A DNA stretch of 64,000 nucleotides, from positions 1,358-65,357 of the forward strand of contig JAZDKU010000015.1 of assembly GCA_043802745.1 (NCBI GenBank). Direction: 5' to 3'. The notes beneath the pieces were generated by a model. It saw only the letters and a program-made list of their open reading frames with translations, ran no database searches and was not told the origin of the DNA. Every line of letters starts with the position of its first letter. The first letter of the stretch is position 1. Shown here piece after piece: positions 10,549 to 34,776 of this stretch. The DNA comes from a bacterium (GTDB lineage Bacteria > Patescibacteriota > Minisyncoccia > Minisyncoccales > CG1-02-41-26). The translations under genes and the position numbers were made by a program.

Positions 10549-11454
10549 TTATTTGATATCCAGACCTCGTAAAGCAGATACTCTTTCTTCAACAGGAGGG
10601 TGAGTTAAGAATAACTTGGTTAACCAGTTGCCTGCTCGTTTGCCTTTAAACGGAGAATAAATAAATAAATGGGCAGTGGAGTTGTTGGCTTTTCTCATTG
10701 GGCTTGGGTCGCTTGCAATTTTTTCTAAAGCGCTGGCTAACCCCTCGGGGTATCTTGTTAAAAGCGCCCCCGAAGCATCCGCTAAAAACTCTCGCTTGCG
10801 AGAAATAGCCAATTGAATAAGAGTAGCGGCAATTGGCGCTAAAATAGCAGCCACCAAAGTTAAAACCAACATTATAGCTCCAATTTTTGAATCATCATTA
10901 TCTGAACGCAAACCCCCAAACATACTCATGCGCAAAAAGAAATCAGCCATTATAGCCACCACCCCAGCCAAAACCACAATCACGGTTTGTAGTAGCATAT
11001 CTTTATTTTTAATATGGCTTAATTCATGGGCGATAACTCCCTCAACCTCCACTTTATTTAATTTTTGCAACAAACCAGCTGTGACCACTACCACTGCGTG
11101 ATTATAATCCCGACCTGTGGCAAAAGCATTTGGCTGGGCTTCGGGCATGACATAAATTCTTGGCATAGGTAAACCACTAGCTATACAAAGATTTTCCACA
11201 ATATGAAAAAGCTCTCGATTGTCTGCTTCTTGGATTGGCTGGGACTTTGTCATGGCTAAAACTAATTTGTCGCTCCACCAATAACTACTAATGGAACTGA
11301 AAATGCTAAAAAACACAGCAAAATACAAAATGCCAGGGGCATTAAAATATCTTGATAATAACCAACCAAACCCAATTATCACAACCAAAAATACGGTTAT
11401 CAAAAACCAAGTTTTGCGAATATTTGAATCTGCTTGCGTGTATAAAGTAGACAT
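10549..11454 (-). CDS. htpX: HtpX-like M48 zinc metalloprotease
   Basis: HELSHIKNKD (HEXXH) zinc motif, N-terminal TM helices, typical HtpX length. Confidence 0.85.
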   Translation of the reverse strand: MSTLYTQADSNIRKTWFLITVFLVVIIGFGWLLSRYFNAPGILYFAVFFSIFSSISSYWWSDKLVLAMTKSQPIQEADNRELFHIVENLCIASGLPMPRIYVMPEAQPNAFATGRDYNHAVVVVTAGLLQKLNKVEVEGVIAHELSHIKNKDMLLQTVIVVLAGVVAIMADFFLRMSMFGGLRSDNDDSKIGAIMLVLTLVAAILAPIAATLIQLAISRKREFLADASGALLTRYPEGLASALEKIASDPSPMRKANNSTAHLFIYSPFKGKRAGNWLTKLFLTHPPVEERVSALRGLDIK

Positions 11455-11530
11455 AAAAAAGTGATTGAGTCATTGAGTGACTAAGTGATTAAATTACTTA
11501 ATCTCTTAATAACTTGATGACTAATTCTTA
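11449..11530. promoter_or_regulatory. 5' leader/promoter module of htpX; first 44 nt (including ATG TCT) identical to rsmI leader at 32351-32394
   Basis: agacataaaaaagtgattgagtcattgagtgactaagtgattaa identical at both loci; further ~40 nt diverged but homologous (cttaat..cttgatgact). Confidence 0.5.
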
Positions 11531-11537
11531 ACTTGTT

Positions 11538-13253
11538 TTACCATGAGCCTCCGCCTCCGCCACCGAAGCCACCTCCAGAAAAACCGCCACTAAATCCGCT
11601 ACCATCCTTTCCGCCCCCTGGCTGACTTGCTAAAGCTCCGCCAATACCAGCTAGGGATTTGTTTAAAGATTCTGAAAAGTTAACCGGACTAAAGTATGTT
11701 CCATAAACCGCGCCTTCATACCAAGTTGGCGGTGTTTTATAAATCCCTTCAAATGCTTTGGCCCATTTTTTTGTACAGCCAAATATAATGGCATAGGGCA
11801 AGAACTTTTCAAAAATATTTTCTTTTTCCTGAAATTGCGCCCGATATTTTTCTGCCCTGGTGATGTATTCTTTAAACCCTAAAATATGCCACATCATCTC
11901 TGTGCCCTTTTTACTCTTCTTTGGCATAAGGGCGCCAAATATAATAAATAAGAATGCGCAAGTTATTATAATAAAAGCATACCATCCATTTAAATTTCTT
12001 ACAAAAGGAATAAATATTGAAAGAACTTTAATAAGAATAAAAGATCCTATCAAAAGCCCCATACCAATTCCTATAAATGTTGATTTTGCCTTTTCTGGAT
12101 CAGAAACAAAATAATCGTCAAGCACCATTTCTGTTGAGACATTTTCTTTTATCTCTTTAAACTCCTCATAAAATTTTTGACGCAATGAAGAAACCGCCAC
12201 TTCGCTCTTTTGAACGAATAACTTAGAAAGCAAGGTCCATTCAAAAGGCTCTAGTGTTTTGTCCATTACATAATCTTTTTGTTTAATAAATGTCCAGTCC
12301 TTGGTTTTGCCAATAAATTTCTTTTGCTCTGTTTCTTTTATCTTTATGTATCCCTTAACCGCCAAATCAATAATTGTAGCCGACAAATCGATGTAGGTGG
12401 TTTTTTGTTTTAAAATATATGATACCTCTATTGGGCGGAGCTCGTTTGGCAAGTCATATTGCACCATAATAGATCTGTGCAACTTTATATCTCTACCCTT
12501 TTTCCACCAAACAGAAAATAAGTAAACAAACATTAAAACCGGTATAATAAGCGGCCAGTACTTTTTAGCAGAATCTGTTATTTTTTCTATTGTGCTTGGC
12601 GGGCTAACCACGCCCTTTGGCCAGCCGAATACCACGGTTAGACCCTCTCCTTCATCCAGCAAGCGAGTAGTTCGGAAATGAGCTGTTCCATCAAAAGAAT
12701 ATTGACAATCTTCTCTTGTTGAACCAAACTGCCCCACATAACATTTTAAATTTTTTTCTCCTAAAAAATCTTCTACTTGCGGAAAATTAATGTTTATCAA
12801 AACGCCTTCGATTGGCACAGGCCAATTATTGCCAGTTACATTCCAATAAAACTCGTCGTGGTCGGGCAAAAACTTTACAGCACCCTTAACTAAATAAGTG
12901 ATGATGTATTGATGCTCCCCAGTAATTGTTTGGTTGGCATCGCCGATTTTTACTCTAATATTATCGCCTGTTTTTGACAAATCGTATTTATACTTATTGC
13001 CATTTTCATCAACCACACTTTTCACATCAACGTTAATATCTTTTGTATAAATATCCCGGTAGATGCCGTGCCTGTACTCTGTGCCAAAATCATAAAAAAT
13101 ATCCTCGGTTATTAAAACCGAACTATTCTTCTGAATTTGCGCCTGCACATCATAGCTATTTATTTTTTCTTGTGCCAAAGCAAAGCTACCAATAAACAAA
13201 GCTATTAAAAAAATAAATAAAAATACTTTAACTTGAAAATTTCTTTTTACCAT
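11538..13253 (-). CDS. DUF2207-family membrane protein with Gly-rich C-terminal tail
   Basis: Signal peptide, large extracytoplasmic domain, TM helices near C-terminus, tail GGGKDGSGFSGGFSGGGFGGGGGGSW typical of DUF2207; start moved to MVKRNF because upstream ORF extension runs through terminator hairpin. Confidence 0.6.
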   Translation of the reverse strand: MVKRNFQVKVFLFIFLIALFIGSFALAQEKINSYDVQAQIQKNSSVLITEDIFYDFGTEYRHGIYRDIYTKDINVDVKSVVDENGNKYKYDLSKTGDNIRVKIGDANQTITGEHQYIITYLVKGAVKFLPDHDEFYWNVTGNNWPVPIEGVLININFPQVEDFLGEKNLKCYVGQFGSTREDCQYSFDGTAHFRTTRLLDEGEGLTVVFGWPKGVVSPPSTIEKITDSAKKYWPLIIPVLMFVYLFSVWWKKGRDIKLHRSIMVQYDLPNELRPIEVSYILKQKTTYIDLSATIIDLAVKGYIKIKETEQKKFIGKTKDWTFIKQKDYVMDKTLEPFEWTLLSKLFVQKSEVAVSSLRQKFYEEFKEIKENVSTEMVLDDYFVSDPEKAKSTFIGIGMGLLIGSFILIKVLSIFIPFVRNLNGWYAFIIITCAFLFIIFGALMPKKSKKGTEMMWHILGFKEYITRAEKYRAQFQEKENIFEKFLPYAIIFGCTKKWAKAFEGIYKTPPTWYEGAVYGTYFSPVNFSESLNKSLAGIGGALASQPGGGKDGSGFSGGFSGGGFGGGGGGSW

Positions 13254-13267
13254 AAGACGAAAACAGG

Positions 13268-13302
13268 CCCAACCTAACAGCTTGCTGGGTTGGGCCAAAG
13301 CG
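13268..13302 (-). terminator. rho-independent terminator of lemA
   Basis: ggcccaacc..ggttgggcc perfect stem immediately after lemA stop, followed (minus strand) by T-rich tract. Confidence 0.6.
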
Positions 13303-13887: not shown

Positions 13888-13926
13888 AAACCAGAATGCC
13901 GAACAAATACAAAAATATTTAAGTAT

Positions 13927-13950
13927 TTTTCGGATTTCGGATTTCGGATT
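13927..13950. repeat. tandem heptamer (ATTTCGG)x3, intergenic
   Basis: tttcggatttcggatttcgg; same unit recurs at 16345-16372 and inside uvrA. Confidence 0.7.
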
Positions 13951-13957
13951 TTTTTAA

Positions 13958-14491
13958 TTATTTTGGTAAGTTGGCAATAAAGATTGCCAAGGCAGGGTGC
14001 TGAACCAATAACTTATCGTTGAATAATTTTACCACTGCCATAAAATCATCAACTTCTTCTTTAAACGTTTCCGGACCCACAAAAACTTCCCTGCCCTCTT
14101 GGGCCAAACTTCTTAAATAATGGCACAAAATTTCATCAGTTTTCTTTTGTTTTAAATAACTGATTATTTTTTTAAACTCTCCTCTGTCAAGAAAAACCCC
14201 GTGGCAAAAATCACAAATATCAACCTTTATTGTCGAATGGTTGTAATTTACCTCATAAAGCGGGACTGCATCAACCGGACAAATCTTAGCTGTTTTACCC
14301 ATATGAAATTTTGTGGCCTCGTTCCACAAATCAACATCAAGCCATTGCAATGATTTATCAGCTTGGTCTTTGGCTTGCCTTAGCTCATCTTCTGAAAACC
14401 AAACTCCCAAGCACCTTGAGCAATAGTCAACATTGATGTTATAAAACATCGCTTTTTTCATTTCTTCACCTTGATGCGTTGGACATTTCAT
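13958..14491 (-). CDS. double zinc-ribbon (zf-TFIIB-like) domain protein
   Basis: Two CPxx...CxxC modules (CPTHQ..CSRCLGVWF; CPVDA..CDFCHGVFLD) each followed by an acidic/helical segment. Confidence 0.45.
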   Translation of the reverse strand: MKCPTHQGEEMKKAMFYNINVDYCSRCLGVWFSEDELRQAKDQADKSLQWLDVDLWNEATKFHMGKTAKICPVDAVPLYEVNYNHSTIKVDICDFCHGVFLDRGEFKKIISYLKQKKTDEILCHYLRSLAQEGREVFVGPETFKEEVDDFMAVVKLFNDKLLVQHPALAIFIANLPK

Positions 14492-14575: not shown

Positions 14576-14582
14576 TGCTTGA

Positions 14583-14608
14583 TTCCTAATTCCTAATTCT
14601 TAATTCTT
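14583..14608. repeat. tandem heptamer (TAATTCY)x4 just 3' of groEL stop
   Basis: ttcctaattcctaattcttaattcttg. Confidence 0.7.
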
Positions 14609-14612
14609 GTGT

Positions 14613-16292
<1,680 letters not shown>

Positions 16293-16344
16293 CTAAACCA
16301 GAATTCCTAATAAATGCCTAAATGCCTAATTCCCAATTTTTCGG

Positions 16345-16372
16345 ATTTCGGATTTCGAGCTTCGGGTTTTAA
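16345..16372. repeat. tandem heptamer (ATTTCGG)x3 in groES-groEL spacer
   Basis: tttcggatttcggatttcgagcttcgg. Confidence 0.65.
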
Positions 16373-16377
16373 TGATT

Positions 16378-16845: not shown

Positions 16846-19722
16846 TCAACTCCCTGCGCTACCTCGCAAATATTTTCCTGTCCAGCTGGTTTTGTTTTGG
16901 CTAATTTGTGTTGGTGTGCCTTCAGCTACAATCTGTCCGCCTTTTTCTCCGCTATCTGGGCCCAAGTCAACAATCCAATCAGCCTGATTAGCCAAATCCA
17001 TATTATGTTCAATAATAATTACTGTATTACCCTTATCAACTAAGGCTTTTAAAACAAACAAAAGCTTGTTTGTATCGTCTGGATGCAAGCCAGTGGTTGG
17101 CTCATCAAGAATATATAATGTTTTACCCGTAGATTTCTTTGACAGCTCAGTGGCTAATTTTATCCTTTGCGCTTCCCCGCCCGACAAAGAAGTAGCTGAC
17201 TGGCCAAGCTCAACATAAGAAAGCCCAACCTCGCTTAATGTTTGTAATTTTTGACTTAAAACTGGTATGTTTTTGAAAAACTCCAAGGCCTCCTCAACTG
17301 TCATATTTAAAACATCAGCAATTGATTTTCCTTTGTAATCCACCTCCAAAGTCTCTCGATTATATCTTTTGCCATGGCATTCCTGACACTGCACAAAAAC
17401 ATCAGGCAAAAAATACATTTCAATCTTTTTTACGCCTTGGCCTTCACATGCCTCGCATCTACCACCCCTAACATTAAAACTAAACCTGCCCAATTTAAAA
17501 CCTCGAACTCTTGCTTCTTTTGTTTTAGCAAAAATATCTCTAATATAATTGAAAGCGCCCGTATAGGTGGCTGGATTGCTACGAGGCGTGCGACCAATCG
17601 GGGATTGGTCAACCAGAACAACTTTGTCTAAAAACTCTGTACCCAAAATGCTATCGTGCAGGCCAATAATATCTTTTGACCGATAAAACTTTTGATACAA
17701 GGCTTTAGCCAAAATATCATTAATCAAGCTACTCTTGCCAGACCCCGAAACCCCTGTCACGCAGACAAATTTACCAAGCGGAATTTTAACATCAATATTT
17801 TTTAAATTATTCTCCTTCGCCCCTTTTATTTCTAAGTATCTTTGTTTTGAAATTTGATTTTTTGAATTTTGGGTTTGTTTAGAGTTTAAGATTTCGGATT
17901 TAGAATTTCTGGCAGAAATTATTTTTCTGCCAGAGAGGTATTCACCTGTAAGAGTCCTCGAGCTTAACAATTGTTTCGGCGTTCCCTCAAAAATAACCCT
18001 ACCCCCGTGCTTGCCAGCTCCAGGGCCAATATCAATAATCCAATCAGCTGATTTAACTGTTAAAGGATCGTGCTCAACCACAATCACTGAATTACCAACA
18101 TCTCTTAATTCCTTTAAAGTTACAATTAGCTTACTCTGGTCTCTGGGGTGCAAGCCAACTGATGGCTCGTCTAAAATATATAAAACCCCAGTTAGTTTTG
18201 AACCAATTTGCGTGGCTAATCTTGCTCTTTGCTCTTCCCCGCCCGACAATGTTTCAGTTTCTCTGGATAGGGTTAAATAATCCAAGCCCACGGAAACCAA
18301 AAACCCCAAACGGCTAACGATTTCTTTAATTAAAGGCTGGGCTATTTTTAAATGTTCTTGAGAAAAGTTTTTTGTTAAATTTTCAAAAAACTTTTTAGCT
18401 TCAATTGACGGCATATCTGAAACATCAGCAACTGATTTACCAGCAATTTTTACGGCCAGAGATTCTTTGTTCAGGCGCTTGCCTTGACATTTTTCACACA
18501 CACGAGAAACCATGTAGCGCTGGATTTCTTCCTTAGCCCAATCAGAATCTGTTGCCCAATATCGCCTTTGCAAATTAGTGATTACTCCTTCAAACCCTTC
18601 GCTATTGCCGTATAAAATTAAATCCAAAATTTCTGGCCTTAAATTTTTAATTGGCTCATCAAGAGAAAATTTATACTCATCCGCCAAATCAGACAAAACA
18701 CTAAAATAATAACCCTGCCTGCCAACCTTATGGCTGGCTCTAGCCCAAGGAAAAATCGCACCCTCTGCAATAGAAAGATTCTTATTGGGAATAACTAAGT
18801 CTGGAGAAACTTCTAATTTTTTACCAAGTCCTTGGCAATTCTTGCAAGCTCCAAAAGGCGAGTTAAAAGAAAATAATCTTGGCTCAATTTCTGGCAAAGA
18901 AACTTCGCAATAATCGCAAGCAAAGTGTTCACTAAAGATTAAATCTGCTGATTTAATCTTTTGATTCATGGTTGATGATTCATGACTCACGATGACTGCT
19001 CCATTGCCAAGTCGCAAGGCAATTTCTAAAGAATCAACTAACCGAGATTTCTCTAAGTCTTTATCTAAAACTAATCTGTCAACCACGATTTCAATGCTGT
19101 GCTTTTTCTGCCTGTCCAAATCTCTTTCTACTGCTTCGTCTAATCGTTGAATAACTCCATCAATTCGCGCTCGCACAAACCCGGCTTTTTGCGCTTCTAC
19201 TAAAACTGCTTTGTGCTCGCCTTTTTTGGCTTTAACAGCCGGACCTAAAATATTAATTTCGCTGTTCTTTGGCAGGCTCAAAATATTTTTAACGATTTGG
19301 TCGATTGTTTGTTTTTTTACTTCACGGTTGCAATTTGGGCAATAGGGCGTGCCTACTCGACTAAACAAAACTCTCAAATAATCGTAAATTTCAGTCATTG
19401 TGCCCACTGTGGACCTTGGATTGTGAGATGATTTTCTTTGGTCTATAGAAATGGCTGGGGAGATGCCTTCTATTTTATCAACATCTGGTTTTTGCATCAC
19501 GCCTAAAAACTGGCGAGCATAAGAGGATAAACTTTCCACATATCTTCTTTGGCCTTCAGCATACAAAGTATCAAAAGCCAAACTGGATTTGCCCGAGCCA
19601 GAAACGCCAGTGATAACCACGAGCTTGTTTTTGGGAATGTCCAAATCAATATTTTTCAAATTGTGCACTCTCGCCCCGCGTATGGAAATATAATTTTGTG
19701 GATTTTTTATTTTTGTTGCCAT
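16846..19722 (-). CDS. uvrA: excinuclease ABC subunit A (UvrA)
   Basis: Two ABC ATPase halves (GVSGSGKSSL x2), zinc-finger CxxC modules, signature LSGGE; start taken at MATKIKNPQNYISIRGARVHNLKNI. Confidence 0.95.
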   Translation of the reverse strand: MATKIKNPQNYISIRGARVHNLKNIDLDIPKNKLVVITGVSGSGKSSLAFDTLYAEGQRRYVESLSSYARQFLGVMQKPDVDKIEGISPAISIDQRKSSHNPRSTVGTMTEIYDYLRVLFSRVGTPYCPNCNREVKKQTIDQIVKNILSLPKNSEINILGPAVKAKKGEHKAVLVEAQKAGFVRARIDGVIQRLDEAVERDLDRQKKHSIEIVVDRLVLDKDLEKSRLVDSLEIALRLGNGAVIVSHESSTMNQKIKSADLIFSEHFACDYCEVSLPEIEPRLFSFNSPFGACKNCQGLGKKLEVSPDLVIPNKNLSIAEGAIFPWARASHKVGRQGYYFSVLSDLADEYKFSLDEPIKNLRPEILDLILYGNSEGFEGVITNLQRRYWATDSDWAKEEIQRYMVSRVCEKCQGKRLNKESLAVKIAGKSVADVSDMPSIEAKKFFENLTKNFSQEHLKIAQPLIKEIVSRLGFLVSVGLDYLTLSRETETLSGGEEQRARLATQIGSKLTGVLYILDEPSVGLHPRDQSKLIVTLKELRDVGNSVIVVEHDPLTVKSADWIIDIGPGAGKHGGRVIFEGTPKQLLSSRTLTGEYLSGRKIISARNSKSEILNSKQTQNSKNQISKQRYLEIKGAKENNLKNIDVKIPLGKFVCVTGVSGSGKSSLINDILAKALYQKFYRSKDIIGLHDSILGTEFLDKVVLVDQSPIGRTPRSNPATYTGAFNYIRDIFAKTKEARVRGFKLGRFSFNVRGGRCEACEGQGVKKIEMYFLPDVFVQCQECHGKRYNRETLEVDYKGKSIADVLNMTVEEALEFFKNIPVLSQKLQTLSEVGLSYVELGQSATSLSGGEAQRIKLATELSKKSTGKTLYILDEPTTGLHPDDTNKLLFVLKALVDKGNTVIIIEHNMDLANQADWIVDLGPDSGEKGGQIVAEGTPTQISQNKTSWTGKYLRGSAGS
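17861..17935. repeat. in-frame insertion in uvrA inter-domain linker: degenerate TTTGAAA/GATTTCG heptamers plus 11-bp perfect hairpin (tctggcagaaa/tttctgccaga)
   Basis: Seen in sequence; encodes SKSEILNSKQTQNSKNQISKQ within UvrA. Confidence 0.6.
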
Positions 19723-19778
19723 AGAAATATGCATTATAACCCATTTTCACCCAAAAGAAAAGCAACCGGGGTGAACTC

Positions 19779-21252: not shown

Positions 21253-23380
21253 AAGCCCGACAAAGGCGAAAACCCTGCAAGGGTTTCTTGACAAAAATTA
21301 CAATGTTATCTCTTCTTTTGGTCATGTGAGAGATTTGCCAAAAAGTGTTTTGGGTGTGGATGTTGAAAAAAACTTTGAAGTGAAGTATATCGTGCCAATT
21401 AAAGCCAAACCAAAGGTGAAGATCTTAAAAGAAGAGGCTAAAAAATCTGATGAAATTATACTAGCAACCGACGAAGACCGCGAAGGAGAAGCAATTGCCT
21501 GGCACTTATCTGAAGTTTTAAAGCTAGAAAACCCAAAAAGAATTGCTTTTCACGAAATAACAAAAACAGCTATTGAAGAAGCGTTAAAAAACCCGCGAAA
21601 AATAGATATGAATTTAGTAAACGCCCAGCAATCAAGAAGAGTTTTGGACAGATTGGTTGGCTACAAGCTTTCTCCTTTTTTATGGAAAAAAATAATGCGA
21701 GGGTTGTCAGCGGGCCGAGTGCAGTCAGTGGCTATGCGCTTAATTTGCGCAAGAGAAGACGAAATCAAAAAATTTATCCCCCAAGAGTACTGGTCCATTG
21801 AGGCATTGCTTGACCGCTTCCGCCCCACCCCTCGGCCCCAAGCCGAGGAGTGGGGCGGTTTCCGAGCAAATTTGATTGGCGTTGAAATAAAAAACAAAGC
21901 TCAAGCTGATAAAATTTTGCAGGAATTAGATGGGGCGCAATACATTGTTGAAAGCATTGAGAAAAAAGAAACAATCAGAAACCCCCAAGCCCCCTTCACC
22001 ACCAGCACTCTCCAACAAACATCTTCAAGCAAGCTAGGCTATGGAGCAAAAAGAACCATGATGATTGCCCAAAAGCTTTATGAAAAAGGTCATATTACCT
22101 ATCATCGTACCGATTCCTTAAACCTAAATATGCAAAGCCAAGAAATAGCCAAGCAGTTTATAATTAACTCTTTTGGTGAAAAATATTGGCCAGGAGATTA
22201 TAGAAAGTTTAAAACAAAATCAAAATCAGCCCAAGAAGCCCATGAGGCCATCCGGCCAACTCATCCTGAAAACGATCCTGATAGCTTTAAAAAATCAGCT
22301 AAGCCAACCCCAGACGAATCAAAGCTTTACACTTTAATTTGGCAAAGATTTATAGCTAGTCAAATGAGCCAGGCTATTTTTGACACTTGCTCAATTGACA
22401 TAAAAGCCCATTCGGCAAGCTCAGGGCAGGCCCCTTCGAATTCCTCAGGACAGGCTTATACATTTAGGGCTAATGGCCAAACCTTAAAATTTGATGGGTT
22501 TTTGAAAGTTTATCCTGTTAAGTTTGAAGAAACAGATTTGCCCAACTTGGATAAGGGCGAAGTTCTTGAGTTAAAAGACTTACTCTCAAATCAACATTTT
22601 ACCCAACCCCCGGCCAGATATTCAGAAGCAACATTAATAAAAGTTTTAGAAAAAGAAGGCATTGGCCGACCATCAACATATGCCCCAACGCTAAGCACAA
22701 TTCAACAGAGAAACTACACCGAGAAAGACGAAAACAAAAAGCTAAAACCAACCCAAATTGGCATAATGGTTGACACGATGCTTTTAGCGAACTTTCCCCA
22801 GATTGTAGATATTCAATTTACTGCTAAAATGGAGAAAGAGTTCGATGAGGTAGCTAATGGAAAAGACACTTTTCAACAAACCTTAAAAGATTTTTATATG
22901 CCATTTGAAAAAATTTTAAAAGACAAAGAAAAAACCGTGGAAAAATTAGATCTCACAGAAAAAACCGATAAAATATGCCCAGAATGTAAAAACCCAATGG
23001 TGCTACGGATGGGCAGGTTTGGAAAGTTTTATGCGTGCAGTAAGTTTCCAGAGTGTAAACATACAGAGCCAATAAAAAAACCAACTCTTGGAATTGAGTG
23101 CCCAAAATGCGGTCTAGGTCAAATAACTGAAAAAACAACAAAAACCAAAAAAATATTTTACGGTTGCTCAAATTGGCCCAAGTGCGACTTTGCTTTATGG
23201 GATAAACCAGTTAATCAATTCTGCCCGGATTGCAAGTCTATAATGATAGAAACAAAACCTGCCCGCAATGCTTCCAGCATAGCTGATGCAGGCGGGAGTA
23301 AAGTAATAAAATGCCCAAGTAAAACCTGCCCATCAATTATCAATGCAAAAGAAAATAAAAAACTTAAAAAGGAAACTTAA
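21230..23380 (+). CDS. topA: DNA topoisomerase I
   Basis: MQSLIIVESPTKAKT..., TOPRIM, active-site Tyr region, C-terminal zinc ribbons (CPECKNPM.., CPKCG.., CPDCK..). Confidence 0.95.
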   Translation: MQSLIIVESPTKAKTLQGFLDKNYNVISSFGHVRDLPKSVLGVDVEKNFEVKYIVPIKAKPKVKILKEEAKKSDEIILATDEDREGEAIAWHLSEVLKLENPKRIAFHEITKTAIEEALKNPRKIDMNLVNAQQSRRVLDRLVGYKLSPFLWKKIMRGLSAGRVQSVAMRLICAREDEIKKFIPQEYWSIEALLDRFRPTPRPQAEEWGGFRANLIGVEIKNKAQADKILQELDGAQYIVESIEKKETIRNPQAPFTTSTLQQTSSSKLGYGAKRTMMIAQKLYEKGHITYHRTDSLNLNMQSQEIAKQFIINSFGEKYWPGDYRKFKTKSKSAQEAHEAIRPTHPENDPDSFKKSAKPTPDESKLYTLIWQRFIASQMSQAIFDTCSIDIKAHSASSGQAPSNSSGQAYTFRANGQTLKFDGFLKVYPVKFEETDLPNLDKGEVLELKDLLSNQHFTQPPARYSEATLIKVLEKEGIGRPSTYAPTLSTIQQRNYTEKDENKKLKPTQIGIMVDTMLLANFPQIVDIQFTAKMEKEFDEVANGKDTFQQTLKDFYMPFEKILKDKEKTVEKLDLTEKTDKICPECKNPMVLRMGRFGKFYACSKFPECKHTEPIKKPTLGIECPKCGLGQITEKTTKTKKIFYGCSNWPKCDFALWDKPVNQFCPDCKSIMIETKPARNASSIADAGGSKVIKCPSKTCPSIINAKENKKLKKET
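21820..21858. repeat. GC-rich near-palindromic element inserted in-frame in topA (encodes RPTPRPQAEEWGG)
   Basis: ccgccccacccctcggccccaagccgaggagtggggcgg; 35 nt identical to copy in metG (29873-29911). Confidence 0.85.
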
Positions 23381-25115
23381 CTCCCCGGAGTTATTTGAAG
23401 AAATAATTCAGCTTGCAAAAGAAGAAATTTTTAGGCCTATTTTAAGCGATGAAAAAATCGCTAAAAACAAGGCTTTTTTGTTTAACCATGCCATAAAAAC
23501 CGGGGAAATACTAAGCGAAATAAACTCATCAAAAGAAACTATTTTAGCTGGAATACTTTACCAGCTCAAAGATTTAGTTTTTCCAAAATCAATCACCCAA
23601 GAAAGCCAACAAAACGAAATCTTTGACATTATAACTTTAACAAAAAAGCTTAGAGATTCTTTTGGTTTTTTCAAAGAGCCAAAAATGAAATCTATTAAAG
23701 ACTGGCAAAAAGTTCTTTTTGATGAGCAATCAGAAAATTTAAGAAAGTCATTTTTTGCTTTAGCTAAAGACCTCCAACCCATCTTGGTTTTAATAGCCGA
23801 CTCTTTGGACGAAATAGAGAGTATGGCAAGATATTACAACAAAAACCAACAAAAAAACCAGGCCATCATTGCTTTGGAAATTATGGCGCCTTTATGCTAT
23901 GCCCTTGGTATGGAAAACTTGAAAGTAAGGTTTGAAGATGCTGCCTTTCCCATTCTCTATCCCAAAGAATACGGGTGGTTAATCAAAAACTTCACCGACG
24001 ACAGAACAGAAATAAGGGCCTACACTGAAAAGATAAAACCAAAAGTTAAAAAAATTCTTCAAGATAAAGGCCTAACAAAAGTTGAAATCTTTTCCCGAGC
24101 AAAGGGCTTATTTTCGCTTTATCAAAAACTCTTAAGACACGACATGGATTTTAGCCAAATTTACGACGTAGTGGCTGTTCGGGTTTTAGTTGAAACAGCG
24201 GACGATTGTTATAAAGCCTTGGGTTTTTTGCACCAAATTTTTCAGCCCCTACCAAACAGAACAAAAGACTATATTGGCAATCCAAAAAACAATGGCTATC
24301 GGGCAATCCACACCACTGTTACTGGCCCAGAAAATAAAACATTTGAAATCCAAATAAAAACAATGCAAATGCACCAAGAAGCTGAGTTTGGTATTGCTGC
24401 TCACTTGGGATATAAGGGAAAGATAAACTCAAAAGCTTATAAACAATTTTTTTGGCTTGATAAAATTCGCCAATGGAAGGCTGAAGCAACAACAATGGAT
24501 GGTCTTTCAAAAGATATTAAAAAGGGGTTGTTTAAAGATTTAATTTTTGTTTCAACGCCAAAAGGCGACCTTATCAACCTGCCAAAAGACGCAACCCCGG
24601 TTGACTTTGCCTATGCTGTTCATTCAGATATCGGCGACCATTGCGAAGGCGCCTTGGTTAATCAAAAAATGGTACCCTTAAATTATAAACTGCAAAACAA
24701 TGACCATATAGAAATTTTGACTAGCAAGAACCACTCTCCTTCAGAAAAATGGCTAAGTTTTGTTAAGACACAAAAAGCTAAAAGCAAAATCAGCAAATTT
24801 TTAGAGCAGTCATTGGGCCAACCCGCTCAATCAATGGCTAAGGCAACTGTTTCAGCTATTACAGAAAAGGTTAGCCTTATTAAAAAAATTATTCCTAGCC
24901 GCTTTATCAAGACACCAAAAATTTTAATTGGCGGAGAACAAGGGATTGCCTTTAAGCTAACTATGTGTTGCCACCCCAAACTAGGTGATAAAATTTCAGC
25001 TTTCATAACCCAGGGAGGAGGCGCTTCTGTTCATAAAGAAACCTGCTTTAACTTAATCGAATTAAAACAAAAATGGCCCGAACGAATCGTGCCAGCTTCT
25101 TGGGTTAGTTCTTGA
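23343..25115 (+). CDS. RelA/SpoT-family (p)ppGpp synthetase with TGS domain
   Basis: Synthetase motif YRAIHTTVTGPENKTFEIQIKTMQMH..AEFGIAAH; TGS segment IFVSTPKGDLINLPKDATPVDFAYAVHSDIG. Confidence 0.85.
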   Translation: MQKKIKNLKRKLNSPELFEEIIQLAKEEIFRPILSDEKIAKNKAFLFNHAIKTGEILSEINSSKETILAGILYQLKDLVFPKSITQESQQNEIFDIITLTKKLRDSFGFFKEPKMKSIKDWQKVLFDEQSENLRKSFFALAKDLQPILVLIADSLDEIESMARYYNKNQQKNQAIIALEIMAPLCYALGMENLKVRFEDAAFPILYPKEYGWLIKNFTDDRTEIRAYTEKIKPKVKKILQDKGLTKVEIFSRAKGLFSLYQKLLRHDMDFSQIYDVVAVRVLVETADDCYKALGFLHQIFQPLPNRTKDYIGNPKNNGYRAIHTTVTGPENKTFEIQIKTMQMHQEAEFGIAAHLGYKGKINSKAYKQFFWLDKIRQWKAEATTMDGLSKDIKKGLFKDLIFVSTPKGDLINLPKDATPVDFAYAVHSDIGDHCEGALVNQKMVPLNYKLQNNDHIEILTSKNHSPSEKWLSFVKTQKAKSKISKFLEQSLGQPAQSMAKATVSAITEKVSLIKKIIPSRFIKTPKILIGGEQGIAFKLTMCCHPKLGDKISAFITQGGGASVHKETCFNLIELKQKWPERIVPASWVSS

Positions 25116-26055: not shown

Positions 26056-26076
26056 ATGTTAGAACCCCTTAACGAG

Positions 26077-26106
26077 CCTGTATAATTTTTAATAAAATTA
26101 TACAGG
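26077..26106. promoter_or_regulatory. perfect 12-bp-arm palindrome containing TATAAT in both orientations, 22 nt upstream of nucleotidyltransferase start
   Basis: cctgtataattt-ttaata-aaattatacagg. Confidence 0.4.
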
Positions 26107-26237
26107 AGAGTTTAGGGGGTATTACACCCTGTGAAGTAAAATTTGAGTACAAATTTTAATTTTAAATTTATTAAAATTTAAAATTACTTCACGGGGTAGT
26201 GATTTTACTACTAAATTTTTGATTAGGCCTCAAAAAT

Positions 26238-28730
26238 TTATTGAAAATCTACTACGAAATTTATTAGTTTATTTTGCACGAAAACAACCTTTTTAATTGT
26301 TTGGCCTTTCAGCCATTTATTTATCTTTTCATCCTGTTTGGCAATTTCTAAAGCTTGCCCTTGACTTGCTTCTGCTTCAACTTCCACAACTCCTCTGGCT
26401 TTGCCATTGATTTGCACCACTATCTTCACCCTATCTTCAAAAAGCCACTCTTCTTCTGGTTTTGACCATTGTTCTAAAAATATACTATCATTATTTCCTA
26501 ACCGATGCCACAATTCCTCTGCTATATGGGGGGCAAACGGCGAAACAATAATCAAAAATCTTTCTAAATCTTTTTTAGACAGAAAACCTTCCTGCAAATC
26601 TTTTTGAGTCCACCATAATCCGATAAAACCCATCAAACAACTAATTGCCGTATTAAACTTCATTTGCTCAATGTCCTCTGAAACTTTTTTAATTCTCAAT
26701 TCAAGCGATACCTTCAGCTCTCTAAATTTTATTTCTTTGGGAAATTCTTTTGAAAGAGAGTCGTTAACCAACAACCATATTCTTTCTAAAAATTTTCGCG
26801 CACCAATTATAGCTTCTGTATTCCATGCGATTGCTTGGTCAAAGGGCCCCATAAACATTTCGTAAATTCTTAAAGTATCAGCTCCATATTCTTTCACAAT
26901 ATCATCAGGATTTATCACGTTGCCCTTACTCTTGCTCATTTTCACCCCCCCCTCCGCCAAAATTAACCCCACATTACGCAATTTTAAAAACGGCTCATCA
27001 AAACTAATTAAACCCTTTCTAAAAAGAGCTTTAGTAAAAAACCGAGCATATAAAAGATGCAAAACCGCATGCTCTGCTCCCCCCACATATAAATCTACTG
27101 GTAGCCAATATTTAATTTTTTCTAAGCCAGCAAACTCATTTTTATTTTGATAATCAAGATAACGAAAAAAATACCAAGACGAGCAAACAAAAGTGTCCAT
27201 TGTATCAGATTCTCGCTTTGCTTGTCCGCCGCATTGCGGGCATTTAACATTATGAAAATCCTTAGACTTTGTTAGGGGCGACTCGCCTGTTGGCACAAAA
27301 TCAACATCTGTTGGTAATAACACTGGCAAATCTTTTTCTAACACAGCTTGCTCCCCGCATTTGTCGCAATAAATAATAGGAATAGGGGCGCCCCAATATC
27401 TTTGCCTAGAAACCAGCCAATCCCGCATCCTATAATTTACTTTTTTCTCAGCTATTTTTTTACTAGCCAGCCACTGCCCAATACTTTCTATAGCTTCATT
27501 CGAGGCAATCCCATTAAATTGTTCTGAATTTGTTAAAATGCCTTCTTCTTCCCAACACTCTGCCTCTAATCTAACGCAATCCTTCTTACCCATAGCAAAA
27601 TCAACAGCATTAACTAAAGTAGCGCTCAACTCTGGTGGCAGAATAACCTTTGGACAGGGCAACCCATACTTTTTTGCAAACTCAAAGTCACGAGCGTCGT
27701 GAGCTGGCACAGCCATAATAGCGCCAGTGCCATAGCCAGACAAAACATAGTCAGCCACAAAAATCGGAATTTCTTTTCCATTGGCTGGGTTTATGGCCAT
27801 AATACCTTCTAGTTTTACACCTGTCTTATCCCTAACATCTGCCTGCCTATCTCTCTCGCTTTTTTTCTTTGCTACTTCAACATACTCTTTCACCTCCTTT
27901 AGATTTAAGATTTTAGATTTAAGATTTAAGATTATTTCATGTTCTGGAGCCACCACTAAATAAGTGCACCCGAATATAGTATCAATTCTTGTTGTGAACA
28001 CATTTATTTCAAATCTTGAATCATGAATCTTGAATCTTATTTCATGCCCAGTGCTTTTTCCAATCCAATTTTTTTGCATTATTTTAATTGGTTCTGGCCA
28101 ATCAATTTTGTCCAAGCCAGCCAAAAGCTCTTCGTTAAAATCCGTAATTTTAAAAAACCACTGCTCTAAATCTTTTTGGCTAACCTCGCTACTGCACCTT
28201 TCACACTTGCCATCTTGGGCTTGCTCATTAGCTAAAACTGTTTGGCAAGAATCGCACCAATTAACAGAGGCTTTGGCTTTATACGCCCAACCATTTTTAT
28301 AAAGAAAAAGAAAAAACCATTGTGTCCATTTGTAATATTCGGGACTTGAAGTGTCTATTTCTCTTTCCCAATCATAAGAAAATCCTAATGACTTAATTTG
28401 TTCTTTAAAATAAGCTATATTTTTGTGCGTGCTTTCGTTTGGGTGGACTTTAGTTTTAATAGCATAGTTTTCTGCTGGCAAGCCAAAAGCATCCCAACCA
28501 ATTGGATGGAGCACATTAAAACCGCTCATCCGCTTATATCGAGAAATAATATCAGTGGCTGTATATCCCTTTGGGTGGCCCACATGCAAACCAGCCCCGG
28601 AAGGATAGGGAAACATATCCAAACAATAAAACTTAGCTTTGTTGCCAAAATCCTCAGCCTTATTTAACCCTTGCTCTTCCCAAAACTTTTGCCATTTGGA
28701 TTCAATTTTATCTGGCTCGTAATTATTCAT
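26238..28730 (-). CDS. leuS: leucyl-tRNA synthetase
   Basis: HVGHPKGY (HIGH), KMSKSKGN, CP1 editing domain. Confidence 0.95.
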   Translation of the reverse strand: MNNYEPDKIESKWQKFWEEQGLNKAEDFGNKAKFYCLDMFPYPSGAGLHVGHPKGYTATDIISRYKRMSGFNVLHPIGWDAFGLPAENYAIKTKVHPNESTHKNIAYFKEQIKSLGFSYDWEREIDTSSPEYYKWTQWFFLFLYKNGWAYKAKASVNWCDSCQTVLANEQAQDGKCERCSSEVSQKDLEQWFFKITDFNEELLAGLDKIDWPEPIKIMQKNWIGKSTGHEIRFKIHDSRFEINVFTTRIDTIFGCTYLVVAPEHEIILNLKSKILNLKEVKEYVEVAKKKSERDRQADVRDKTGVKLEGIMAINPANGKEIPIFVADYVLSGYGTGAIMAVPAHDARDFEFAKKYGLPCPKVILPPELSATLVNAVDFAMGKKDCVRLEAECWEEEGILTNSEQFNGIASNEAIESIGQWLASKKIAEKKVNYRMRDWLVSRQRYWGAPIPIIYCDKCGEQAVLEKDLPVLLPTDVDFVPTGESPLTKSKDFHNVKCPQCGGQAKRESDTMDTFVCSSWYFFRYLDYQNKNEFAGLEKIKYWLPVDLYVGGAEHAVLHLLYARFFTKALFRKGLISFDEPFLKLRNVGLILAEGGVKMSKSKGNVINPDDIVKEYGADTLRIYEMFMGPFDQAIAWNTEAIIGARKFLERIWLLVNDSLSKEFPKEIKFRELKVSLELRIKKVSEDIEQMKFNTAISCLMGFIGLWWTQKDLQEGFLSKKDLERFLIIVSPFAPHIAEELWHRLGNNDSIFLEQWSKPEEEWLFEDRVKIVVQINGKARGVVEVEAEASQGQALEIAKQDEKINKWLKGQTIKKVVFVQNKLINFVVDFQ
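27901..27935. repeat. in-frame (AGATTTA)x5 heptamer array in leuS ending ...atttcatg
   Basis: Encodes HEIILNLKSKILNLKE. Confidence 0.8.
28012..28039. repeat. in-frame (AATCTTG)x4 heptamer array in leuS ending ...atttcatg
   Basis: Encodes HEIRFKIHDSRFEI; paralogous to the array at 27901. Confidence 0.8.
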
Positions 28731-29568
28731 AGTTCAATTTAAACAAATTTTTAGCGTTTTGGGTAGTGGTTTGAGCAATTTTCTCCAAACTTTCGCCTCT
28801 TATTTCGGCAATTTTTTGAGCAATGTATTTTACAAAAATCGGTTCATCGCGATCTTGCTGGCCGCCTTCGCCTTGCGGGCTAAGGCGTGCAGAAGGCGGG
28901 CAAAGAAACGGGCAATCTGTTTCCAAAAGCATTCTTTCCAGAGGCATTTTTTTAATTGTTTCTGCTAAATCCATTTTGAAAATAATTCCATTAAAGCCTA
29001 AATAAAAGCCGAGCCCCATATACTGTTGTGCCTCCTCCCAGCTCCCTGTAAAACAATGCACTACACCCCTCCCCCCTCCTAATTCATAATTCTTAATTCT
29101 TAATTCTTCTAGCAGGTCTTGATGGGCTTTTCGGCAATGTAGGATTACAGGCAAATTTAATTCTTTTGCCAAATCTAATTGTTTTAAAAAAACTTGTTTT
29201 TGCTTGTCTTTAAAAATTCTGGCCTTTTCTTTTCCTTTTGGCTCGTTCCAATAATCCAAACCAATTTCTCCTATAGCCACCACTCCCTTTTCTTTGGCTA
29301 ACTCTCTGTATTTTTCAATATCTAATTCTTCTAGTCTATCCTCGTCTAATTGACTTAAGTCAATAACGCAATTGATTGGATGCAAGCCAACAGAAGCAAA
29401 AACACCCTCTTTATGTTGTTGGGCTATTTTCACGGCTAATTGCGAGGTTTTATAGTTTGAGGAAGCGTTTATTATCCAAGTATCTTGCTCTAGGCTTTTT
29501 TTTATAACCTCATCCCTGTCCTCGTCAAACGCCTTAAAATTCAAATGGCTGTGGGTATCAATTAGCAT
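28723..29568 (-). CDS. tatD: TatD-family metal-dependent hydrolase/DNase
   Basis: MLIDTHSHLNF..., conserved His/Glu/Asp metal ligands. Confidence 0.85.
   Translation of the reverse strand: MLIDTHSHLNFKAFDEDRDEVIKKSLEQDTWIINASSNYKTSQLAVKIAQQHKEGVFASVGLHPINCVIDLSQLDEDRLEELDIEKYRELAKEKGVVAIGEIGLDYWNEPKGKEKARIFKDKQKQVFLKQLDLAKELNLPVILHCRKAHQDLLEELRIKNYELGGGRGVVHCFTGSWEEAQQYMGLGFYLGFNGIIFKMDLAETIKKMPLERMLLETDCPFLCPPSARLSPQGEGGQQDRDEPIFVKYIAQKIAEIRGESLEKIAQTTTQNAKNLFKLNYE
29078..29108. repeat. 31-nt element cctaattcataattcttaattcttaattctt in-frame in tatD (encodes ELRIKNYELG); identical copy in ileS at 43119-43149
   Basis: Exact identity seen in sequence. Confidence 0.85.
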
Positions 29569-31657: not shown

Positions 31658-32356
31658 TTATGCGCTAATTTTATTAACTGCTACGACGAATTCTCCTTTT
31701 AGGGGGGATTTTTTTATTGCTTCAATAACTTCGTTGAGAGAGCCGCGGTAGATGGTTTCAAACTTTTTAGTTAGTTCTCTACCCACCACTATTTGCGTTT
31801 TATCTTCTATTCCTGATTCCTGAACCATAAATCCTAATTCATTGAGCGTCTTTATGATGCGATAAGGAGATTCAAAAAATATCACTGAGTGCTTTGAGTT
31901 TATAATTTCTTCAAAAAATTGCTTTCTTTTTTTCTTAATTGGCGGAAAGCCTAGAAACAAAAACTTGTCCATAGGAAACCCGCAAACACTAGCTATAGCT
32001 GTTAATGCCGACGGTCCGGGAATTGGCTCTATTCTAACTTTATCACTCAATGACTTAATGACTTCCCCAACAAGCTGACTGCCTGGGTCAGATATTCCCG
32101 GCGTGCCAGCATCTGAAATTAAAGCTAGATTTTTCCCGTCTTGTAACAAACCTAAAATATAATCAACCTTATCTAACTTAGAATGCTGATGATAAGAAAT
32201 CATTGGCTTTTTAATGCCAAAACGAGTGAGCATTTTTTGGCTCACCCGCGTGTCTTCACATAAAATATAATCAACAGATTTTAAGGTATCCAAGACCCTT
32301 TGGGAAATATCGCTTAAATTCCCAATAGGCGTTCCCACCACATACAAAACAGACAT
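31658..32356 (-). CDS. rsmI: 16S rRNA (cytidine1402-2'-O)-methyltransferase RsmI
   Basis: MSVLYVVGTPIGNLSDIS..., tetrapyrrole-methylase fold. Confidence 0.85.
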   Translation of the reverse strand: MSVLYVVGTPIGNLSDISQRVLDTLKSVDYILCEDTRVSQKMLTRFGIKKPMISYHQHSKLDKVDYILGLLQDGKNLALISDAGTPGISDPGSQLVGEVIKSLSDKVRIEPIPGPSALTAIASVCGFPMDKFLFLGFPPIKKKRKQFFEEIINSKHSVIFFESPYRIIKTLNELGFMVQESGIEDKTQIVVGRELTKKFETIYRGSLNEVIEAIKKSPLKGEFVVAVNKISA

Positions 32357-32430
32357 AAAAAAGTGATTGAGTCATTGAGTGACTAAGTGATTAAGCTTCT
32401 TAATCACTTGATGACTTGATGACTTAGTGA
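32351..32430. promoter_or_regulatory. 5' leader/promoter module of rsmI, 44 nt identical to htpX leader
   Basis: See 11449-11530. Confidence 0.5.
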
Positions 32431-34766: not shown

Positions 34767-34776
34767 TTTTCAAATA
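34744..34776. repeat. AATTTTC heptamer element at prmC 3' end / M16 peptidase 5' end; near-identical to element inside recO (41930-41976)
   Basis: aattttcaatttacgaattttcaattttcaaa vs recO aattttcaatttacaattttcaattttcaaa. Confidence 0.7.

Follow-up and report, generated by a model that had tools for sequence, protein, structure and literature searches.

In the window analysed here, a 64,000-nt stretch of DNA from a Paceibacteria-type CPR bacterium, two spacers on the minus strand, one in front of htpX and the other in front of rsmI, are each filled by a copy of the same repeat-built element. The genes and the parts of the element are as follows, with sequences read on the coding strand.

10549-11454, minus strand: htpX, an M48 peptidase of 301 aa, 3' of copy A
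11449-11454, minus strand: ATG-TCT of htpX, within the identical block and native to htpX (compare relative L004)
11455-11537, minus strand: copy A, the complete DUF2207-htpX spacer of 83 nt, in which 8-nt units form an imperfect palindrome ahead of T6
11455-11460, minus strand: T6 tract immediately 5' of the htpX ATG
11461-11492, minus strand: right (gene-proximal) arm of copy A, TTAATCAC TTAGTCAC TCAATGAC TCAATCAC, 100% identical to copy B
11493-11497, minus strand: loop of copy A, GTAAT
11498-11522, minus strand: left (distal) arm of copy A, AGTCAT CAAGTTAT TAAGAGAT TAA, sharing about 80-88% identity with its counterpart in copy B
11538-13298, minus strand: gene for a DUF2207 membrane protein, 5' of copy A
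31658-32356, minus strand: rsmI, a 16S rRNA C1402 2'-O-methyltransferase of 232 aa, 3' of copy B
32037-32065, minus strand: third, partial member within the rsmI coding sequence, GAAGTCATTAAGTCATTGAGTGATAAAG, matching the left arm of the element at 24/28 positions
32351-32356, minus strand: ATG-TCT of rsmI, within the identical block
32357-32430, minus strand: copy B, the complete AI-2E permease-rsmI spacer of 74 nt, judged from relatives to be the older locus of the element
32357-32362, minus strand: T6 tract immediately 5' of the rsmI ATG
32363-32395, minus strand: right (gene-proximal) arm of copy B
32396-32398, minus strand: loop of copy B, AAG
32399-32432, minus strand: left (distal) arm of copy B, AGTCAC TAAGTCAT CAAGTCAT CAAGTGAT TAAG, overlapping the permease stop codon TAG (32431-32433)
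32431-33474, minus strand: gene for an AI-2E family transporter (PerM-like), 5' of copy B

The part shared without any difference is a 44-mer, AGACATAAAAAAGTGATTGAGTCATTGAGTGACTAAGTGATTAA, which occurs exactly twice in the window, at 11449-11492 and 32351-32394; no third site was found in the window at up to 3 mismatches, and none is expected from shuffled sequences. On the minus strand the last letters of the 44-mer are TTTTTT-ATG-TCT, with the ATG opening the htpX and the rsmI reading frame. The identity that the original prediction had reported in front of both genes is confirmed at two exact sites. The same holds for the homologous but diverged stretch further upstream, since the two copies can be aligned without gaps at 89% identity across 82 nt and 24/30 positions match beyond the 44-mer, and for the internal direct repeats, which follow a strict 8-nt period (TTAATCAC TTAGTCAC TCAATGAC TCAATCAC). 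A Shine-Dalgarno sequence is missing as had been claimed, but this is not peculiar to htpX and rsmI, because nearly all genes in the window lack one. The block is, however, only the gene-proximal half of a larger structure, since each spacer as a whole is an imperfect palindrome. A misassembly at the 44-mer was rejected because relatives share the gene order on either side of both copies.

The further claim that the block supplies the start codon and the second codon is doubtful for htpX. In the relative L004, the htpX orthologue lacks the element and nevertheless starts with ATGTCTACT, so ATG-TCT is native to this gene. For rsmI the claim is ambiguous: the second codon is TCT in both genomes that carry the element, and AGT or GCA in relatives without it.

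Both copies span the entire spacer between two co-oriented genes (83 nt at htpX, 74 nt at rsmI). The element, a palindrome of 75-85 nt, is composed of about eight 8-nt units arranged head to tail, which read (Y)AAGTSAY in one arm and TYARTSAC in the opposite arm. TRF detected period 8 at 11460-11478, 32362-32380 and 32399-32432, and a regular-expression search found 4 units in each arm. A small inverted repeat is present even within the single unit, AGTSACT. Pairing between the arms holds for 77.5% of cells in register and for 17-36% when the register is slid, and the element as a whole has the terminal inverted repeats of MITE- or Correia-like elements in the form of an imperfect palindrome. 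The partial member inside rsmI is specific to the window, and its length equals that of the orthologous segment; this internal array arose through about 10 clustered substitutions with the length unchanged, which we attribute to the copying process that also acted on the spacers.

Comparison with relatives showed that the two loci differ in history. At htpX, the element is present in 0/7 relatives: a GC-rich hairpin stands in its place in L001, L002, L004 and L008, and L003, L009 and L010 have spacers of only 5-14 nt. What the element replaced is another hairpin of similar length rather than an empty site. At rsmI, the element is present in 1/4 relatives, namely L005 (RsmI 85% identical), which carries it at the same permease-rsmI junction with 93% identity. 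The junction holds unrelated heptamer arrays in L006 and L133 and no array in L134, and gene overlap is among the arrangements that replace the element. With these counts at htpX and rsmI, retention of an operator upstream of the orthologues was not found. As judged from this distribution, the permease-rsmI junction is the older locus of the element, and the htpX copy is secondary and lineage-specific.

The rsmI copy has been conserved well beyond its surroundings. Between the window and L005, 63/68 positions of the element are identical, compared with 61-64% of third codon positions gene-wide, 68-76% of them locally and 30-60% of positions in other spacers, and the binomial probability of such conservation is 2e-5 to 3e-4. 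This is sequence constraint above the neutral level at the rsmI copy, and because this copy is clearly constrained between two genomes, some cis function is likely for it. The identity between copies A and B is of another kind. Mismatches between them are distributed unevenly, with 0/44 in one part and 6/30 in the other (Fisher p=0.003), and the right arm at rsmI has 3 substitutions between the window and L005. Because the identity is confined to one arm and the orthologous arm varies, it is better read as recent copying than as extreme constraint, and the uneven pattern points to recent short-patch ectopic copying, not to co-regulation.

Folding of the sense strand gave -18.9 kcal/mol (z -3.8) for copy A and -20.9 kcal/mol (z -4.3) for copy B. 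On the antisense (+) strand, z was -4.1 for copy A and -9.0 for copy B, the latter at -36.7 kcal/mol, and the L005 copy gave -30.2 kcal/mol antisense versus -22.4 kcal/mol sense. An RNA thermometer of the fourU or ROSE type would hide the start region in a weak helix in both copies; in the folds, U6-AUG of copy B is unpaired, and for copy A the UAAAA found at the upstream stop codon pairs with U6 and with the first base of AUG. No compensatory changes that would give structural proof were found among the three element sequences, a number too small to be informative, and the substitutions between the window and L005 make and break sense-strand pairs about equally.

Known signals were searched for in and around the element. 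The original prediction had proposed a promoter cassette, and this proposal is not supported: no sigma-70 promoter (-35/-10 with 16-18-nt spacing) was found within 11455-11537 or 32357-32430, whereas recognisable TATAAT boxes lie 5-12 nt before the start codons of other genes in the window. Neither copy is listed by a scan for canonical intrinsic terminators (G+C-rich stem with a T-run within 0-2 nt), because the T6 tract lies about 8 nt beyond the last solid helix; the stem itself is AT-rich. The same type of scan gave no promoter or terminator on the + strand beside the element. The HrcA site CIRCE (TTAGCACTC-N9-GAGTGCTAA) has 0 matches in the window at up to 3 mismatches, and the HspR site HAIR (CTTGAGT-N7-ACTCAAG) is absent from the element, its 2 matches elsewhere in the window being at chance level. 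The octamer motif was not found in the upstream region of groES. At the gathering threshold, Rfam reports only a tmRNA and two tRNAs in the window and nothing in the element, where the only matches are sub-threshold ones to eukaryotic miRNA hairpins. A cluster of DnaA boxes or an origin was rejected, as the cumulative GC skew is monotonic through both loci and the loci are two in number, and read-through of the permease stop codon into the element was rejected, as stops come quickly and L005 differs.

Outside the window, neither an exact 24-mer nor a degenerate 31-mer specific to the family had any match in 185,579 species genomes or in JGI metagenomes. A degenerate octamer-array pattern matched at least 120 loci across many phyla. 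However, a special cross-phylum octamer family was rejected, because scrambled-unit controls were as common as octamer arrays in viral contigs (44 and 51 versus 49).

The host and its relatives are rich in 7-8-nt tandem arrays and short palindromes. In the 64 kb of genome visible, 15 period-7 tandem arrays are present where 0.35 are expected, and 11/15 of them lie within ORFs, including those of essential genes. The arrays form many intercistronic spacers and also lie in-frame in variable loops of conserved proteins. They occur at orthologous positions across relatives with units that differ by genome, for example in aminoacyl-tRNA synthetases, UvrA and TatD, and short-unit repeats are thus both over-represented and turned over at junctions between relatives. 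In addition, two further blocks have been copied between unrelated loci of the window, each in-frame in unrelated proteins: TatD and IleRS share 32 nt without a difference, and TopA and MetRS share an identical 35-nt palindrome. Unrelated enzymes thereby contain the same encoded peptide. Most heptamer arrays fold no better than shuffles, and a general tendency of such arrays to form hairpins was therefore rejected. Array length was compared in arrays of the relatives rather than in the htpX/rsmI element, and between near-identical strains no indels were found (5.1 kb in L006/L007; 1.7-4.4 kb in L009-L012), so that the behaviour of a contingency locus was not seen in these arrays. In the literature, we found no report of comparable arrays in CPR bacteria.

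Our main reading, which we hold with moderate confidence, is that the element is a palindromic spacer built from octamers that has been copied ectopically and is likely to act as an intercistronic RNA hairpin; among the possible roles of the element, the hairpin is the one we infer to be most likely. Comparison with the relatives indicates that a copy of the rsmI-junction element replaced the GC-rich hairpin they have before htpX. The right arm, together with T6 and ATG-TCT, would then have been re-homogenised, or very recently copied, by short-patch ectopic gene conversion, which was probably anchored by a chance similarity of the gene starts (ATG-TCT-nnT-TTr-TAy, M-S-x-L-Y). The flanking genes are probably co-transcribed at both loci, and in the polycistronic mRNA a long, AU-rich, mismatched stem-loop would end just 5' of a single-stranded U6-AUG. 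Such a hairpin may terminate transcription in part, cause pausing, protect a 3' end or offer a site for RNase III-type processing, and the start region left open would allow Shine-Dalgarno-independent initiation. From the sequence comparisons, the element does not look like a promoter, nor like a conserved operator linking htpX and rsmI. Some points speak against the main reading. The 93% conservation exceeds what a mere hairpin needs and leaves room for a protein-binding role, and the T6 tract is set off from the last solid helix by about 8 nt. Folding is also more stable on the antisense strand (copy B, -36.7 versus -20.9 kcal/mol), which fits a role at the DNA level or in antisense RNA equally well.

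The spacer may instead be a functionless by-product that grew by octamer slippage or conversion and is tolerated, with its identity reflecting recent conversion only. We consider this rather unlikely. A genome full of such arrays, unrelated or absent arrays at the same junction in relatives, the balance of sense-strand pairs made and broken between orthologues, and the generic occurrence of octamer-type arrays across phyla, where they are no commoner than scrambled-unit arrays, would all agree with it, but neutrality would hardly explain why identity to L005 reaches 93% where neighbouring synonymous sites reach at most 76% and other spacers 30-60%. That same conservation, far above that of synonymous sites, could be expected of a shared operator, in which the octamer array would be bound by a DNA- or RNA-binding regulator co-controlling htpX and rsmI. 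The AGTSACT unit resembles many operator half-sites in being a small inverted repeat, and the perfectly identical part is the part nearest the start codon. However, this shared regulator site, the other role put forward in the original prediction, is missing at htpX in 7/7 relatives and at rsmI in 3/4, CIRCE and HAIR are absent, and the upstream region of groES lacks the motif. Furthermore, the same arm differs between orthologues, so the 44/44 identity does not come from constraint, and a spacing of 8 bp fails to hold sites on a single face of the DNA helix. Taken together, an operator is quite improbable.

A mobile miniature element (MITE-, Correia- or REP-like) that was moved by a transposase and brought a promoter or leader with it is very unlikely. 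No direct repeats flank either copy as a target-site duplication, the ends are undefined outside the spacer, and the element took the place of a similar-length hairpin at htpX rather than entering an empty site. Its divergence is uneven along its length, a pattern more in line with conversion than with one insertion event, no promoter was found in it, and the exact and degenerate searches yielded no more copies in the species genomes or JGI metagenomes. In its favour are the imperfect terminal inverted repeat form at 75-85 nt, the presence/absence polymorphism at orthologous junctions, and the two copies and one fragment in 64 kb. What survives of the mobile cassette originally proposed is that the copies are non-orthologous and that one was apparently copied from the other, with the element at rsmI in L005 and at htpX in 0/7 relatives; a promoter in it is not supported. 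The least probable explanation, and one we regard as remote, is a hairpin acting in a + strand RNA, or at the DNA level as a cruciform or a single-stranded hairpin in replication or recombination. The arms differ systematically by CA versus TG, which yields G·U pairs on the + strand only, the + strand folds are the more stable both for copy B (z -9.0) and for L005, and in our reading wobble pairing on the + strand accommodates 3/3 of the stem changes that separate the window from L005. However, the CA/TG difference recurs unit by unit, which reduces it to one or two independent events. It is the sense strand that is favoured by the left-arm substitutions of the htpX copy, and no + strand promoter or terminator was found beside the element.

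The element shares features with several known systems. Correia elements are co-transcribed with flanking genes, and their long hairpin is processed by RNase III; the element here would likewise be co-transcribed and could fold into a long hairpin such as RNase III processes. REP/BIME elements are palindromes of 20-40 nt that occur in high copy number together with a RAYT transposase. Similar to Correia, ERIC, RUP, BOX and REP/BIME elements, it is a small intergenic imperfect palindrome that is present or absent at orthologous sites. In contrast to them, it lacks a target-site duplication and its termini are undefined, it is found as 2 copies and a fragment in 64 kb, its arms are tandem octamers rather than unique sequence, and its spread looks like short-patch conversion. 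Rickettsia palindromic elements (RPE) are 100-150 bp long, belong to a single sequence family and occur in intergenic regions as well as in-frame in unrelated conserved proteins. The short repeated or palindromic blocks of this window are also both intergenic and in-frame in unrelated proteins, but they are 30-45 nt long and of several unrelated types, and the htpX/rsmI element is non-coding except for ATG-TCT. The terminator and promoter in the htpX spacers of relatives are comparable in position and in length, as L002, L004 and L008 have a GC-rich hairpin and a T-run where the element has a hairpin and then T6; here, however, an AT-rich stem with mismatches is separated from the T-run, and no TATAAT box lies after the hairpin or in the loop.

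Heptameric and other short-unit intergenic repeats are known as cyanobacterial STRR and as the GGGAATC arrays of Xanthomonas and Nostoc (PMC4692102). Like the arrays here, they are tandem 7-8-nt units in spacers of the same genes across related genomes, with large variation in length and sequence between relatives, genome-specific unit families, and inverted array pairs that are sometimes capable of forming stem-loops (PMC4692102). The unit of the present element is different in being AT-rich and 8 nt long and in forming a single palindrome over the whole spacer, with one arm perfectly copied to a second locus; the arrays of this clade also lie in-frame within essential genes, and the host is a CPR bacterium. 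For Haemophilus influenzae hmw, a 7-nt repeat tract in the 5' region is reported, where RNA structure and RNase III processing affect expression (PMC12721329). The tract resembles the element in placing short-unit repeats between upstream signals and the start codon, but the hmw tract is a hypervariable phase-variation locus 3' of a known promoter; here no promoter is evident, and near-identical strains of the relatives show no length polymorphism of arrays.

The co-regulation of membrane proteostasis and ribosome maturation through a common leader is unsupported, and an evolutionary account, the ectopic copying of a spacer hairpin built from repeats, replaces it. For the htpX/rsmI finding itself little changes. 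It is also conceivable, and we propose it only tentatively, that this Paceibacteria lineage has an active short-patch copy-and-paste process, possibly by template switching or homeologous conversion. Such a process would write 25-45-nt repeat blocks, in the form of octamer or heptamer arrays and small palindromes drawn from a small genome-specific repertoire of units, into spacers and, in-frame and length-neutrally, into variable loops of essential proteins. Whole intercistronic spacers and protein loops would be built and rebuilt in this way, with the htpX/rsmI leader as one of the products, later brought under selection. As far as we found, a genome-wide process of this kind has not been described in CPR bacteria. 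The wider pattern of array-built spacers, arrays at orthologous positions and shared blocks may outweigh the element. If this pattern is general in CPR genomes, it would bear on how very small genomes acquire indels, protein loop insertions and non-coding signals, it would warn annotators against taking dispersed identical leaders for regulons, and it would provide a concrete system for asking why bacteria favour heptamer periodicity.

The identical 44-mer that the original prediction placed before htpX and rsmI was confirmed at exactly two sites in the window (11449-11492 and 32351-32394), and no further site with up to 3 mismatches was found there or is expected from shuffled sequence. Its minus-strand sequence is TTAATCAC TTAGTCAC TCAATGAC TCAATCAC TTTTTT ATG TCT. 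The predicted diverged homology upstream of the block was also borne out, with 89% likeness over 82 nt without gaps and 24 of 30 matching positions in the stretch adjoining the 44-mer. In both places the element that holds the block makes up the complete spacer separating two genes of the same orientation, and the best database matches of both proteins carry the same names (HtpX, RsmI) and belong to Candidatus Pacebacteria/Patescibacteria.

11455-11537, minus strand: copy A, 83 nt, between the gene of a DUF2207 membrane protein (11538-13298) and htpX
10549-11454, minus strand: htpX, 301-aa M48 peptidase HtpX, starting at the ATG of the copy-A 44-mer
32357-32430, minus strand: copy B, 74 nt, between the gene of an AI-2E family transporter (32431-33474) and rsmI
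31658-32356, minus strand: rsmI, 232-aa TP_methylase-fold protein RsmI, starting at the ATG of the copy-B 44-mer

Misassembly at the 44-mer was excluded, as both flanks of both copies match the gene order of relatives.

Each spacer is an imperfect palindrome, in which a distal arm of YAAGTSAY units is followed by a 3-5-nt loop, a proximal arm (the conserved 32 nt), T6 and the ATG. When the three known copies are aligned, 77.5% of the cells pair in register, compared with 17-36% when the register is slid, and sense-strand folds of -18.9 kcal/mol for copy A (z -3.8) and -20.9 kcal/mol for copy B (z -4.3) are predicted. The element is classified with short-unit repeat or palindromic intergenic elements, which are a known kind, and on sequence comparison it is a duplicated palindromic spacer built from repeats. 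Many phyla contain octamer arrays of the AGTSAYYN pattern, but these are generic repeats and not a homologous family, because scrambled-unit controls are equally frequent. We infer that the element acts as an intercistronic stem-loop in a polycistronic RNA, where it could serve as an attenuator, pause site, 3'-end protector or RNase III-type site, and would keep the U6-AUG accessible to Shine-Dalgarno-independent initiation.

The order M16 peptidase, AI-2E transporter, rsmI, metG, tatD, leuS is kept in the related genomes (handles L001 and so on), and the transporter-rsmI junction itself varies.

Transporter-rsmI junctions of related genomes
L005 (RsmI 85%): same octamer palindrome, 63/68 identical in arms and loop; second codon TCT
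L134 (RsmI ~86%): no spacer, genes overlap (ATGA); second codon AGT
L133 (RsmI 80%): ATAGTTA heptamer array; second codon AGT
L006 and L007 (RsmI 79%): AACAAAT heptamer array; second codon GCA

Third codon positions of the window and L005 agree at only 61-64% gene-wide and 68-76% across the neighbouring 80-100 codons, and other non-coding stretches at 30-60%. Under those rates, the binomial probability of only 5 differences in 68 nt at the rsmI copy is 2e-5 to 3e-4, so the rsmI copy is, judged in this way, under sequence constraint. A recent exchange confined to the element could explain this too, although its flanks give no hint of one. The element is dispensable in close relatives, yet constrained where it is found.

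At htpX, the order groES-groEL, Zn-ribbon, lemA, (DUF2207), htpX is conserved, and the octamer element is absent upstream of htpX in 7/7 relatives. Since L005 carries the element at rsmI and none of the seven at htpX, this comparison identifies rsmI as the older site and the htpX copy as secondary and restricted to the lineage of the window; the proposed co-regulation of the two genes through the leader is left unsupported. Four relatives whose HtpX proteins are 85-92% identical (L001, 9876-10000; L002, 9913-10000; L004, 5910-5983; L008, 745-818) instead have before htpX a GC-rich hairpin that reads GAGACCCGACCTCT...AGAGGTCGGGTCTC or a variant with covarying stems. A T-run usually comes next, with TATAAT in the loop or just ahead of the ATG. 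The covarying stems of the hairpin are GTAGCCCTCT/AGAGGGCTAC versus CCCGACCTCT/AGAGGTCGGG, and an extended -10 box, TGTTATAAT, lies in the loop or directly past the T-run. The arrangement suggests a terminator overlapping a promoter, and the element would stand in for this hairpin before htpX. In L003, L009 and L010 the htpX spacers are merely 5-14 nt. The 44-mer does cover the ATG-TCT of both genes as claimed, but ATG-TCT is native to htpX, since L004 has this start (ATGTCTACT) without the element.

Copies A and B show no differences over 44 nt and then 6 over the adjoining 30 nt (Fisher p=0.003). Such identity does not come from absolute constraint, because the proximal arm varies between the window and L005 (three substitutions, plus T-run changes). 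By our manual reading of the alignments, the distal arm of the htpX copy matches that of the rsmI copy at 23/26 positions, versus 21/26 for the complement of the arm it is paired with. The simplest history would have two steps, in which the entire element was copied onto the htpX junction and a later short conversion tract restored the identity of the proximal arm, stopping at ATG-TCT, where the gene starts are natively alike (M-S-T-L-Y vs M-S-V-L-Y). Part of the identity between the copies is recent.

Neither copy contains a sigma-70-like promoter or a canonical terminator, and Rfam gave no family in the element at threshold, with only sub-threshold matches to eukaryotic miRNA hairpins. The promoter reading of the leader is therefore unsupported, and the cassette idea holds only insofar as the sequence was copied. 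The absence of a Shine-Dalgarno at both genes holds, but it applies to the window at large: across all its ORFs, such sites are almost absent from the 45 nt upstream. TATAAT stands 5-12 nt ahead of the ATG in many genes (e.g. 1672-2604, 13958-14491, 37672-37911), and together these features suggest that mRNAs with very short leaders, or with none, are common in the window.

Other explanations of the element were weighed against the intercistronic stem-loop. A neutral by-product is unlikely; the dispensability of the element in relatives would fit such an origin, and the constraint at rsmI argues against it. A shared operator, to which the identical arm before two genes would be suited, is quite improbable, and the CIRCE and HAIR heat-shock operators were not found in the element. 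Mobilisation of a miniature element by a transposase would also place a second copy at htpX, where copying followed by conversion is the simpler account, and is very unlikely. An antisense or DNA-level hairpin is hardly to be expected, even with antisense folds (-23.4 kcal/mol for copy A, -36.7 for copy B; z up to -9.0) that are predicted to be stronger than the sense folds, because the CA/TG arm difference, which recurs in every unit, gives G·U only there. This plus-strand gap concerns 32362-32432 and 11460-11530 (-36.7 vs -20.9 kcal/mol for copy B). The intercistronic stem-loop remains our preferred reading.

Besides the 44-mer, the 64 kb contain only two dispersed exact repeats of at least 25 nt, and a third, partial octamer array lies within rsmI.

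29077-29108 (TatD) and 43118-43149 (IleRS): 32-mer of AAGAATT units, both translating to ELRIKNYELG
21815-21857 (TopA) and 29869-29911 (MetRS): in-frame GC-rich palindrome CCCACCCCTCGGCCCCAAGCCGAGGAGTGGGGCGG, both encoding RPTPRPQAEEWGG
32037-32065: partial octamer array within the rsmI coding sequence

TatD and IleRS are unrelated enzymes sharing one identical 32-nt array. The TopA/MetRS palindrome resembles Rickettsia palindromic elements; a third, diverged, non-coding copy lies at 59513-59555 upstream of a 1436-aa ORF, and the orthologous MetRS site in L006 holds a different palindrome. The rsmI-internal site is GTAATAAAAGAATTTGGAGATAAAG in orthologues (L005, L006, L133) versus GTCATTAAGTCATTGAGTGATAAAG in the window, with unchanged length and ~10 clustered substitutions, suggesting templated short-patch conversion rather than slippage. 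As this 28-nt array matches the distal arm of the element at 24/28 positions, base pairing with the proximal arm, which lies 300 nt upstream, would also be possible. Downstream of leuS, the 182-nt spacer 26056-26237 is predicted to fold exceptionally strongly on both strands (-59 to -67 kcal/mol, z about -10), as a long hairpin that is AT-rich and has GC clamps, and it has no Rfam match.

Period-7 arrays (non-overlapping, at least 2.5 copies) number 15 in the window against 0.35 in shuffles, a ~40-fold excess also found in relatives.

Arrays in the window (27898-27933 is a period-14 row)
13928-13951, 14582-14606, 16339-16357, 17845-17871, 24771-24789, 27898-27933, 28012-28038, 29080-29108
29675-29704, 29712-29730, 34743-34773, 41921-41965, 43112-43149, 43601-43640, 48786-48819, 62574-62609

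Eleven of the 15 are in-frame within ORFs (UvrA, LeuRS, TatD, MetRS, RecO-like, IleRS, ArgRS), and the remainder are short spacers directly ahead of the starts of lemA, groEL, M16 peptidase and gyrA. Most heptamer arrays have no predicted fold, unlike the octamer palindrome. At 13888-13957 (lemA) and 16272-16377 (groEL), TCCGAAA arrays precede TTCGGNN/TTCTGGN arrays that are in part complementary to them and that extend into the start codon of lemA and as far as the start of groEL. The predicted fold is significant for the lemA spacer (z -2.75) and not for the groEL spacer. When the window was compared with L001, L002 and L006, arrays of different units occupied the same variable-loop alignment positions in UvrA (16846-19734), TatD (28723-29568), MetRS (29570-31015) and LeuRS (26238-28730), and each genome uses few unit families, each recurring at several loci, a pattern suggestive of concerted evolution or of the same sites being rewritten repeatedly. 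The arrays are not fast contingency loci, because no length differences were seen between near-identical strains of the relatives.

Heptameric repeats are over-represented in bacteria, those of Xanthomonas and Nostoc being intergenic and sometimes inverted, and polymerase slippage was given as an explanation (PMC4692102). We found no literature on such an excess in CPR bacteria. It is possible, if doubtful, that the copy-pasting of blocks and the heptamer arrays in this lineage reflect a distinct mechanism, and we believe that they are a more unusual lead than the element itself.
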